Source: Escherichia phage EP75
Sequence record: MG748547
Length of the DNA stretch: 64,000 nucleotides
Strand: one strand, 5' to 3'
Shown: positions 53,772 through 54,469 of the stretch, in pieces
How positions within the stretch are numbered: position 1 is the first letter of the stretch
How the letters are laid out: every line of letters begins with the position of its first letter
The notes under the pieces: generated by a model
Told to the model about the DNA's origin: nothing
Databases searched by the model: none
Seen by the model: only the letters and a program-made list of their open reading frames with translations
Position numbers and translations under genes: made by a program

Positions 53772-53867
53772 GCTCACATCTTTGAGGACACTGCGCGGGA
53801 CTCGAACCCGCCATGAACATCTGGCGCCAAATGCTTCCACCTGTCAATGTCCTCAAAGATGTGGAGC
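53772..53867 (-). ncRNA. Long hairpin enclosing a T-arm (element E)
   Basis: 16-bp perfect stem 53775-53790/53848-53863 plus a bulge and 3 bp. Interior contains GCGGG-TTCGAGT-CCCGC. Confidence 0.35.
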
Positions 53868-53986
53868 CGTTTTAGGGAGTCGAACCCAAATGATTGGCCA
53901 GCGCTGACCTCACATCCCATCTGACTTAGGCAACCCACCTCTGCTACTCAGGAGCTTATCCCCTTTGGACAGTCAGATATAACGGC
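53866..53986 (-). ncRNA. T-arm-bearing structured element F
   Basis: T arm TTGGG-TTCGACT-CCCTA (one mismatch). 6-bp closure GCCGTT/AACGGC. Internal 8-bp helix 53919-53926/53971-53978. Confidence 0.25.
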
Positions 53987-53988
53987 TT

Positions 53989-54057
53989 TGGGATTGGAGG
54001 AAGGACTCGAACCTTCTCATGTACGCTCCTGATTTCTCAGAAGTAGCCTGCTCCCAT
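53989..54057 (-). ncRNA. Minimal tRNA-like element G with encoded CCA
   Basis: ATGGGAG-CAGGCTA-[CTTCTGA-GAAA-TCAGGAG]-CGTACATGA-GAAGG-TTCGAGT-CCTTC-CTCCAAT-C-CCA. A GAAA-tetraloop hairpin replaces the D and anticodon arms. Confidence 0.35.
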
Positions 54058-54275
54058 CGACCTATTAAGTACACGCTCCGCTCATTGTTCGGCGGGAGCT
54101 TATTAATCACACCCTCCCACCTATTGTTAGTGCGCCGAATTTTGTTATGAGGAATCGGAAGACCTCACTGACTTATAGGCTATTACGCCGCCATCAGAAC
54201 TTCGGAATCATTAGCAGTTATTTGCTTGGTCAGTTTCTAAAAACCCGCAAAGTCACGCACAACGAAAACGAAAAC

Positions 54276-54340
54276 CTGTTTGAGTCCTAAACCTACCTGT
54301 CTTGGTCTCACATCGATATGAGTGGCCAGGACTCAAACAG
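54276..54340. repeat. Inverted repeat, 12-bp perfect stem
   Basis: CTGTTTGAGTCC (54276-54287) pairs with GGACTCAAACAG (54329-54340). Confidence 0.85.
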
Positions 54341-54403
54341 CTTGCCGTTCAGTGAGTTAACTATACTTTGTAACCCGTTATTGATAAAACCTTTTATTTT
54401 GTT

Positions 54404-54469
54404 GGCGAGGGTGCGGAATCGAACCACACTTCTGAGCGCTACCCCGTGTCACCAATGCACCACCTCACC
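54404..54469 (-). ncRNA. Truncated tRNA-like element H (66 nt)
   Basis: GGTGAGG-TG-GTG-CATTGGTGA-CAC-(17 nt unpaired)-TGTGG-TTCGATT-CCGCA-C-CCTCGCC. Acceptor, D-like arm and T arm are present but there is no anticodon stem. Confidence 0.35.

Follow-up and report, generated by a model that had tools for sequence, protein, structure and literature searches.

Why would a phage genome carry a series of canonical transfer RNA (tRNA) T arms at positions where no tRNA can be recognized? The question is raised by Escherichia phage EP75 (MG748547), of which one 64,000-nt stretch (the window) was analyzed. A sequence-only reading of this DNA had singled out four such T arms, belonging to elements termed H, G, F, and E, and had proposed that they are tRNA mimics rather than products of random decay. 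All four T arms are present, and like every other feature under discussion they are encoded on the minus strand: TGTGG-TTCGATT-CCGCA in H (54428-54412), GAAGG-TTCGAGT-CCTTC in G (54016-54000), TTGGG-TTCGACT-CCCTA in F (53889-53873), and GCGGG-TTCGAGT-CCCGC in E (53811-53795). Each of the four T loops fits the TTCRANY consensus, and each T arm has a tRNA-like acceptor stem stacked on it, which is 7/7 paired and covarying in H, 6/7 paired in F and, as first read, in G, and extended to 19 bp in E. The motif GGTTCRANTCC occurs nine times in the window, always on the minus strand and within 2.85 kb (51578-54425), compared to 0.35 expected from shuffled sequence (none of 100 shuffles reached nine). 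Three of the nine matches lie in real tRNAs and six outside them. Neither ARAGORN at its default setting nor the Rfam gathering score called a tRNA at E to H, and RF00005 gave no match to them even at E ≤ 10. We consider, with moderate confidence, that the four elements are tRNA-derived RNA cassettes that would have kept the acceptor/T-arm half of a tRNA, lost a usable anticodon loop, and come to serve as top-half frames or competitors.

The comparison sample comprised 39 related loci, which represent seven genera or groups at the least; scans of IMG/VR added about 10 further close relatives and no more. A pseudogene test on relatives had been suggested together with the original description, and it found no intact tRNA at the positions of E to H in any of the 39 loci (ARAGORN), so that the refutation named there fails. 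The first canonical tRNA in these relatives lies at the tRNA-Met position or farther. The second half of the same suggestion, a check for compensatory changes, yielded seven double changes in H, drawn from three lineages. The level of sequence identity is also informative. Fourfold-degenerate sites of gp6 are 0.30 to 0.37 identical between the window and other genera and are thus saturated, compared to 76 to 97% identity for noncoding sequence within the array of elements. This means that the noncoding identity of the array is not neutral, though recent exchange contributes to it; the region is mosaic, with the neighboring 189-aa gene 95% identical in loci L020 and L038 compared to 81% for gp6.

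First, H (54403-54469) is a 67-nt tRNA-like cloverleaf, as delimited by covariation and by its presence/absence boundaries. It has a 7-bp acceptor stem (GGTGAGG/CCTCGCC) with a U3-G70 pair, a discriminator A with no encoded CCA, a D arm, 16 nt between the D and T stems, and a 6-bp T stem closing the loop TTCGATT (TTCGA(T/A)T across sequences). In an alignment of eight distinct sequences from Kuttervirus, Klebsiella phage UPM 2146 (Taipeivirus), and Salmonella phage CRW-SP2 (Aglimvirinae), the structure has 21 pairs with 95.8% of cells paired, and seven pairs, spread across four helices, show double compensatory changes. None of 500 shuffles reached the observed covariation (double changes in shuffles, 0.9), and slid partners gave 0 to 1. 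Position 13:22, which tRNAs often leave unpaired, is the only one without a pair. The acceptor with its G-U pair, the D-like arm, and the T arm, all recognized from the letters alone, are therefore helices kept by compensatory changes. However, the 17 nt at the anticodon position, which had been held unable to pair, contain a stub of a 4-bp stem and a 3-nt loop (54444-54434), and this stub itself covaries: changes on both sides are seen at two of its pairs, and the other two alternate between G-U and G-C. The loop sequence varies (AGC, GGC, AAC, or AAA). The 5′ end of H, U(-1)/G(+1), is the usual RNase P context.

According to presence and absence in relatives (local BLAST), the H cassette extends over 54400-54475. 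In relatives, the same slot may be empty or may hold H, a 26-nt remnant of H (L020 and L038), a ∼145-nt tRNA-framed RNA (TGCGGTG...CACCGCA with T arm GTCGG-TTCGATT-CCGAC), or an 83-codon open reading frame (ORF). Two GenBank records label H as a 67-nt tRNA-Ala. ARAGORN draws it, as Ala-AGC, only at the 85% threshold and with the acceptor register shifted by 4 nt; this register is mismatched in the Klebsiella-phage copy, whereas the covariation register is perfect there. The covariation, together with a stub whose 3-nt loop is unconserved, leads to the conclusion that H is a selected tRNA-shaped RNA that is unable to present an anticodon. The statement that none of the elements sits in a foldable cloverleaf is thus borne out in that ARAGORN and Rfam call no tRNA, but it fails for H, which is a cloverleaf with a stub anticodon arm.

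Second, E (53775-53863) consists of a 19-bp clamp around a hairpin and the canonical T arm. The clamp arms (53863-53845 pairing with 53793-53775) exist in ten versions, in which 8 of the 19 pairs are double-changed and 97.9% of cells are paired; the covariation score is 0.441 compared to 0.157 in shuffles. The 19-bp stem said to enclose the T hairpin is therefore real, with eight covarying pairs. The same clamp encloses five different interiors among relatives, namely, the hairpin and T arm found in the window (E1), a cargo of ∼100 nt that lacks a T arm (S118, UPM 2146, and others), a two-hairpin cargo in which both hairpins are T-arm-like (IME250), a fourth cargo, and a plain hairpin. One clamp with five interiors, and pairs that covary, means that E is a conserved clamp with swappable cargo, the T arm being one cargo among several. 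Searches against Rfam gave a weak match of E to mascRNA-menRNA (17.7 bits, E = 5.4, against a threshold of 42.5), and no Y RNA (YrlA type) family model matched E or its clamp at E ≤ 10.

Third, F (53862-53986) is a 125-nt RNA predicted by RNAalifold, and from its conservation, to fold as a four-way junction with the topology of a cloverleaf. Its acceptor, GCCGTTA (53986-53980) with AAACGGC, pairs at six of seven positions; AAACGGC directly follows the T stem, and the discriminator U and an encoded CCA come next. Of the remaining arms, one is a 9-bp long arm (TATCTGACT/AGTCAGATG) with a branched insert and the other is capped by GCGC. The earlier description of F was limited to its T arm; the acceptor, the U-CCA end, and the junction fold are added here. 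F was found in 31 of the fetched loci and is nearly invariant across genera, with its ∼75-nt interior as conserved as its frame (a truncated F occurs in L037). Among 15 distinct sequences, RNAalifold gave 41 pairs with one-sided changes only and no double changes. The variation falls at a handful of positions, all compatible with the fold, so that covariation speaks neither for nor against it; a candidate compensatory pair in the GCGC-capped hairpin was withdrawn, since RNAalifold resolved it into two one-sided changes. At the 85% threshold, ARAGORN draws a degenerate Leu-CAG cloverleaf in the inner part of F. The conservation of F far exceeds neutral expectation, and the functional case for this element rests on it, although recent exchange may have contributed. 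G, F, and E abut with spacers of 0 to 2 nt, like tandem tRNA genes: F starts 2 nt past the CCA of G, and the CCA of F overlaps the first bases of the E clamp, which thus begins inside it.

G is the element for which the comparison is least helpful. The fold proposed in the sequence-only reading (53989-54057) combines ATGGGAG/CTCCAAT, paired at six of seven positions with a G3-A70 mismatch, with an encoded C-CCA, a 7-bp GAAA-capped hairpin, and the T arm, and all of these parts are indeed in the sequence. However, the acceptor reading finds no support in a sister version, G2, carried by L010, L011, L017, L023, and L032. G2 has the 5′ flank, the 3′ strand, and the CCCA in common with G and a T stem in which an A:T pair is replaced by G:C; its interior is different, and the segment homologous to ATGGGAG lies only 9 to 10 nt from the T arm. 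An alternative fold would pair GGAG (54079-54076) with CTCC (53999-53996) and add a helix of 54075-54069 with 54024-54018. This 7-bp helix can form in both versions, as CGTGTAC/GTACATG in G and, at the cost of one bulged C in the 3′ strand GCACCCTG, as CAGGTGC/GCACCTG in G2. Either the proposed acceptor or the alternative helix may close G. G itself exists in only four near-identical variants, which offer no informative changes. As an insertion/deletion cassette, G spans 54088-53987; in relatives its slot may be empty or may hold G, G2, or an unrelated sequence of ∼160 nt, and G is absent from L009, L013, L020, L033, and L038.

A further module, which we call X (54091-54276), was missing from the sequence-only reading even though it lies within the range 53772-54469 that this reading described. 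X begins with the leader GGTTTTCG, followed by a candidate first pseudoknot. It continues with the frame GCT AAT GAT TCC GAA GTT CTG ATG GCG GCG, identified by alignment and encoding ANDSEVLMAA (54215-54186), with the stop codons TAA TAG (54185-54180), with a stop-codon hairpin (54197-54168) and an H-type pseudoknot (54167-54135), both covarying, and with a terminal hairpin that has the conserved loop GGTGTGATTAATAA (54121-54091). An AUA at positions -6 to -4 precedes the GCN codon, which is a resume-type context. In the alignment, the frame always has 10 codons, starts with GCN AAY GAN, and ends at TAA. Seven peptides are encoded, ANDSEVLMAA in the window and ANDDVVLMAA, ANDNTFLAVA, ANDEKFLMAA, ANEEMYLAVA, ANDNAFLMAA, and ANDNEFKVAA elsewhere, and one peptide is encoded by three different synonymous codings. 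For comparison, the SsrA tag of Escherichia coli is ANDENYALAA. In the stop-codon hairpin, four of four outer pairs are double-changed; in the pseudoknot, three of five stem pairs and three of four loop-to-3′ pairs are (for example, CCGA/UCGG becomes CCAA/UUGG and CCAG/CUGG). None of 500 shuffles reached the covariation of X. The tag frame, the covarying stop hairpin, and the pseudoknot together identify X as a message domain of the transfer-messenger RNA (tmRNA) type.

X shares with the standard and permuted tmRNA families (RF00023, RF04321, and RF01849-51) the AUA context, the resume-type GCN, and a 10-codon tag of the ANDxxxLxAA type, and as in those families the stops lie in a hairpin loop with a pseudoknot next to it. 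It differs in having no joined alanine-type tRNA-like domain and in its scores. Across seven independent X loci, the only recurrent Rfam matches were sub-threshold tmRNA families on the tag part, at 21.5 to 33.5 bits against a gathering score of 47 for RF04321 and at 7 to 21.5 bits against 84 for RF01850. Neither ARAGORN at default nor the Rfam gathering threshold called a tmRNA over X; ARAGORN does so only at or below 85% of its threshold and with an implausible pairing. No alanine-type tRNA-like domain for X was found among the acceptor stems of the array: position 3:70 holds U-G in H and G-A in G, while F and the inner clamp of E both have C-G there, and of the discriminators in H, G, and F (A, C, and U, respectively) only that of H is the tmRNA-type A.

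Three ways of completing X were tried and rejected. A one-piece tmRNA, with a 5′ strand upstream of X and the T arm and CCA of G or F, fails because many X-bearing phages lack H, many lack G, and F has a 5′ strand of its own. A permuted tmRNA with H as the acceptor piece fails because the strands of H covary with each other and no GGCGAGG-type strand precedes X. Finally, the 5′ end of X, GATAGTT, pairs at six of seven positions with the 3′ strand of tRNA-Ser in Shigella phage Sf11, but this tRNA has its own 5′ strand, and no such partner exists in Klebsiella phage BUCT610 or in an E. coli prophage.

The distribution of X extends well past the family of EP75, into other unrelated siphoviruses, an N4-like phage, and E. 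coli prophages. By BLAST, 54129-54269 has ∼80% identity to noncoding DNA of unrelated phages, including the Shigella phages DS8 and Sf11, Salmonella phage KFS-SE2, the N4-like phage IME11, the 72-kb Salmonella phage FSL SP-058, and Klebsiella phages, and matches were found in 124 of 5,426 complete E. coli genomes. Copies were located in L040 (2480-2660), L041 (2470-2650), L042, and L043 (2975-3150). In Sf11, tRNA-Ser and tRNA-Arg follow closely on X, which is preceded by a clear TTGACA-17-TAGATT promoter; in IME11, it lies inside a 2-kb unannotated gap that also contains tRNAs; and in an E. coli O26 prophage, it lies between the antiterminator Q and the holin gene. X is thus close to tRNA genes in three of the five contexts examined (the window, Sf11, and IME11), and it stands without any T-arm element in the E. 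coli prophage and in BUCT610. In Sf11 (L040 2650-2740) and in the O26 prophage (L043 2900-2990 and 3150-3260), X is flanked by a clamp of a different type, AACAGGTAAGAGCA...TGCTCTT(A/T)(T/C)CG(T/G)TGTGG, with variable interiors. Downstream of X in IME11 (L041 2890-3090) there is a 63-nt noncanonical tRNA-like element with an encoded ACCA, TCCGGTG...TCTGG-TTCGAGT-CCAGA...CGCCGGA-A-CCA, as well as a second T arm, TAAGG-TTCGAAT-CCTTA, and ARAGORN called a tRNA for neither of them. To judge by these features, this kind of element recurs in an unrelated phage family.

Taken together, the folds of H, the E clamp, and X are maintained by compensatory evolution on minus-strand RNA. Their G-U pairs make sense on the minus strand only, which argues for RNA rather than DNA structure. 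That the elements are structured tRNA mimics rather than products of random decay is therefore supported: H keeps its helices through compensatory changes although fourfold-degenerate sites are saturated, and no intact tRNA was found at any of the four positions. The decay reading is rejected for H and is unlikely for E and F, and our verdict on it is limited to these three.

The elements belong to a larger RNA array. This array occupies ∼3.6 kb (about 55100-51480), is nearly ORF free, was present in every Ackermannviridae locus fetched, and is situated between a conserved 189-aa gene and the true tRNAs of the phage. The 4 kb around the locus matched 320 phage records (the top match, Salmonella phage Se-J, at 97.6%), and its close matches are all Kuttervirus of the Ackermannviridae (the ViI/CBA120 group). 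True tRNAs in the window, by ARAGORN at default and by Rfam curated thresholds, are Tyr (51918-52001), Asn (52397-52472), and Met (52658-52733), and all three have an encoded CCA. The ∼2.2 kb of 52734-54927 contain no convincing minus-strand ORF, and careful annotations of relatives leave the counterpart blank. On one side, this stretch is flanked by the 189-aa gene (55132-55701) and then a 48-aa ORF and, on the other side, by tRNA-Met. The same layout, with a gap of 1.5 to 3.3 kb, is found in Taipeivirus, Agtrevirus, Limestonevirus, Miltonvirus, and Nezavisimistyvirus. The tRNA repertoire of the cluster differs widely among relatives (Met, Asn, Tyr, Ser, Arg, Trp, Gln, Lys, Glu, and Ile). Searches of the literature on noncoding RNA of Ackermannviridae, tRNA-like decoys of phages, transcriptomes of Kuttervirus, and tmRNA-like RNAs of phages turned up no description of the elements.

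When the sequence was scanned for T arms trailed by a 7-nt strand that can pair upstream, H, G, F, and E were returned and, in addition, K (127 nt; 52264-52390), L (62 nt; 51758-51819), and M (150 nt; 51568-51717), each with a 7/7 acceptor and a T arm and located among the real tRNAs and beyond them. The D arm of L is class-II-like, and derivation of L by simple internal deletion from a nearby tRNA-Ser of relatives was considered and rejected, as the acceptor and T stems differ. A further cloverleaf-like element, J (54635-54724), was found by eye and occurs in 32 of the related loci in addition to the window. It has a 7-bp acceptor, GCGTGAT/ATCACGC (GTGTGAT/ATCACAC in Klebsiella phages), a canonical D arm, a long arm whose conserved 10-nt loop CAAGUCGACA contains the palindrome GUCGAC, and a variable hairpin at the T position. 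With K, L, and M returned by the scan and J found by eye, the phenomenon is wider than the four elements reported at first. There are also three further clamps, I1 (53128-53221), I2 (53595-53728), and I3 (54267-54349), detected as inverted repeats with arms of 21 to 26 nt that are 86 to 100% complementary and with branched interiors. I3, whose fold was also predicted, has 22-nt arms and a 39-nt interior and lies directly upstream of X. As read from the sequences, the I2 arms of the window differ from those of IME250 at five positions, and each of the five remains paired. The array is thus built of exchangeable modules: short tRNA-like RNAs (H, G, and L), long tRNA-framed RNAs with a cargo in place of the D and anticodon arms (F, K, and M and, in relatives, H′), ∼20-bp clamps with swappable cargos (E and I1 to I3), and the tag module X.

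Several other features of the array were noted. A 48-aa hydrophobic ORF (54928-55074, minus strand) stands at its head, and a 47-aa ORF (52471-52614, minus strand) lies between tRNA-Met and tRNA-Asn; in S118, both counterparts are labeled hypothetical proteins (orf171, similar to CBA120_219, and orf173, respectively). HNH endonuclease genes are found inside the array of two relatives, phage SP1 (L010 1824-2294) and 0507-KN2-1 (L039 2910-3470), and the insertion site in SP1 is between I3 and X. By consensus match only, there is a promoter-like TTATCA-16-TATAGT (54360-54387, minus strand) just upstream of I3 and X and a strong terminator-like hairpin followed by a T run (AGCCCGATCAGGATGATCGGGTT TCTTTTT; 51482-51504, minus strand) just past M, at the array end. 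Finally, the minus-strand motif CCnGnCGAACAATGAGnGG (repeat family D2) occurs three times, just upstream of the G cassette (54078-54096), upstream of H (54504-54522), and at a third cassette junction near 53400 (53451-53469). This repeat could be a processing, promoter, or recombination signal.

How might such RNAs act? In the explanation that we favor, the array would be transcribed together with the tRNAs, and its tRNA-like frames would be recognized by the host tRNA-maturation enzymes, with RNase P cutting at the acceptor 5′ end, followed by 3′ trimming and completion of the CCA, which G and F already encode. The outcome would be the release of stable small RNAs that are unable to decode. 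Both the processing by tRNA enzymes and the stability are inferred. The released RNAs might then act in either of two ways, as frames that give defined ends and stability to neighboring or embedded RNA cargos or as nondecoding competitors for host proteins that read the top half of tRNA or tmRNA. Because the elements flank X, the most specific candidate target would be the trans-translation machinery (SmpB and EF-Tu). A decoy or scaffold role and a link to ribosome rescue remain speculative.

A tRNA top half without an anticodon arm is also the architecture of the tRNA-like domain of tmRNA. A phage precedent for an RNA of this kind is described in PMC11915505, which cites Mao et al. 2009, where mycobacteriophage DS6A is said to encode a tag-less tmRNA of ∼65 nt that inhibits the host tmRNA. 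As far as that account goes, the DS6A RNA resembles H and G in being phage encoded, in its size, and in having an acceptor and T arm without a decoding or message part; it differs in being classed as a tmRNA homologue, whereas H has a D stem and U3-G70 and G has G3-A70 and a discriminator C. By description only, the size and layout of the DS6A type would fit G (a capped 7-bp helix and no D stem) and in part H (a 4-bp stub, but with a D stem); all of the elements score below every tmRNA model threshold. The tmRNA-like architecture and the DS6A precedent again make the trans-translation machinery a candidate target of H- and G-type RNAs.

Several observations weigh against the explanation that we favor. 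Charging with alanine needs a G3-U70 pair, and no acceptor stem of the array carries one, so that a tmRNA-like charging role is not supported. H has no encoded CCA, and unlike the tRNA-like domain of tmRNA it has a true D stem. G offers no informative variation, and its acceptor reading, contradicted by G2, does not appear to be supported. Some close relatives lack H, some lack G, and some lack E, which means that none of the three is essential. The presence of X without a T arm in the E. coli prophage and in BUCT610 means that a link between X and the tRNA-like elements is not required. Finally, the conservation of F could stem in part from recent exchange between phages in this mosaic region.

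A more ambitious form of the same idea, which we regard as possible but unlikely, is that the free-standing tag template X and separate top-half mimics of the H, G, and F types make up a ribosome-rescue toolkit in several unrelated enterobacterial phage families, working as a multi-piece tmRNA that would write a phage-specific tag or as a jammer of host tmRNA-SmpB, with the clamps and frames forming a cassette expression system for small RNAs. The narrower version, in which X would be the coding piece and H (permuted) or G or F (standard) the tRNA-like domain of a phage tmRNA that performs its own trans-translation with an altered tag, is more doubtful again. It has the merit that X carries every feature of a tmRNA message domain and that the proposed fold of G, with no D stem and a capped helix for an anticodon arm, is the layout of a tRNA-like domain. 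In addition, the Rfam beta_tmRNA model aligns the T arm of H and the tag of X in permuted order, and ARAGORN at 85% assembles ATTGGTG from the D loop of H, X, the T arm of G, CTCCAAT, and CCCA into one molecule. However, every one of these matches is below its curated threshold. H is self-contained, with acceptor strands that covary, and F has its own 5′ strand. Many phages retain X but lack H, many retain it but lack G, and X occurs without a nearby T arm in the E. coli prophage and in BUCT610. There is no G3-U70, and only H has the tmRNA-type discriminator.

It is slightly less probable still that the elements are only punctuation, that is, RNase P and RNase Z cut sites that separate the modules (X, cargos, and tRNAs) of a long precursor, in the way that tRNAs punctuate mitochondrial transcripts and mascRNA marks the MALAT1 3′ end. 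The arrangement of the array would suit this: H lies between a conserved upstream block and I3 and X; G, F, and E follow one another directly, so that a CCA end adjoins the next module; and the same tRNA-type frame recurs around various cargos (F, K, M, and H′). However, close relatives keep the flanking modules without H or G, which are thus dispensable there, and the promoter-like site directly upstream of I3 and X also speaks against it. In the case of F, an interior as conserved as the frame means that this element is more than a cut site.

Neutral wreckage, in which the elements are tRNA pseudogenes left by turnover of the tRNA cluster and on their way to being lost, falls just behind the punctuation model in probability. 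Turnover is certainly visible in the varied tRNA content among relatives, in known decay products such as the H remnant in L020 and L038 and the truncated F in L037, and in the HNH genes that insert in the region. The low-threshold ARAGORN cloverleaves for H (Ala-AGC) and inner F (Leu-CAG) would also fit descent from tRNA genes. However, H keeps 20 of its 21 pairs with seven double changes despite saturated silent sites, the stub that replaces its anticodon arm itself covaries, and the ARAGORN register is the one that fails in the Klebsiella-phage copy. An intact ancestor was found at no position in any relative examined, and the array is present in every genus examined, whereas phage genomes rarely retain 2 to 3 kb of useless DNA. 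Least probable by far is that these are DNA-level recombination or homing substrates (miniature inverted-repeat transposable element-like or integron-like) carrying T-arm motifs passively, since, despite sharp cassette boundaries, swapped cargos, the HNH genes in SP1 and 0507-KN2-1, and the CCnGnCGAACAATGAGnGG repeat before H, G, and a third junction, the helices tolerate G-U and not the A-C expected from a cruciform or from the opposite strand (for instance, at 3:65, 28:36, and 30:34 of H), the E arms covary instead of both keeping a protein-binding consensus, and X holds a reading frame with synonymous variation.

The tRNA-derived cassettes that we favor have partial counterparts in other systems. 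RNAs C and D (species 1 and 2) of phage T4 are small stable non-tRNA RNAs that lie among the phage tRNA genes and are matured with them; the likeness to the array elements is one of position only, and Rfam has no family for C and D. Among eukaryotic systems, the tRNA-like RNAs of murid herpesvirus 68, which are linked to precursor microRNA hairpins, and the MALAT1 mascRNA are excised by tRNA enzymes and do not decode. These are, like the elements here, nondecoding tRNA-like RNAs beside long hairpins, but they depend on other enzymes, and the match of E to mascRNA is far below threshold. The T4 tRNA cluster also contains a homing endonuclease, according to statements in PMC2330249 and PMC13096335. 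A parallel in design is offered by the engineered tRNA scaffolds used for recombinant RNA expression in E. coli, in which a cargo replaces the anticodon arm (PMC3753655). F, K, M, and H′ have the same cargo-in-frame layout, and the frame would provide processing and stability; the scaffolds are man-made, however, whereas a natural use by phages is inferred from anatomy only.

Phage tRNA clusters are now regarded as counterdefense loci. In the phages studied here, the cluster is preceded by 2 to 3 kb of conserved, unannotated RNA modules that standard tools miss or mislabel. If the cassettes are processed and stable, they would be natural tRNA top-half mimics and a natural instance of the tRNA-scaffold design in bacteria. 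X is important by itself, as a tag template without a tRNA-like domain that is conserved at the peptide level and spread over unrelated phages. It makes testable the question of whether phages rewrite or block trans-translation.

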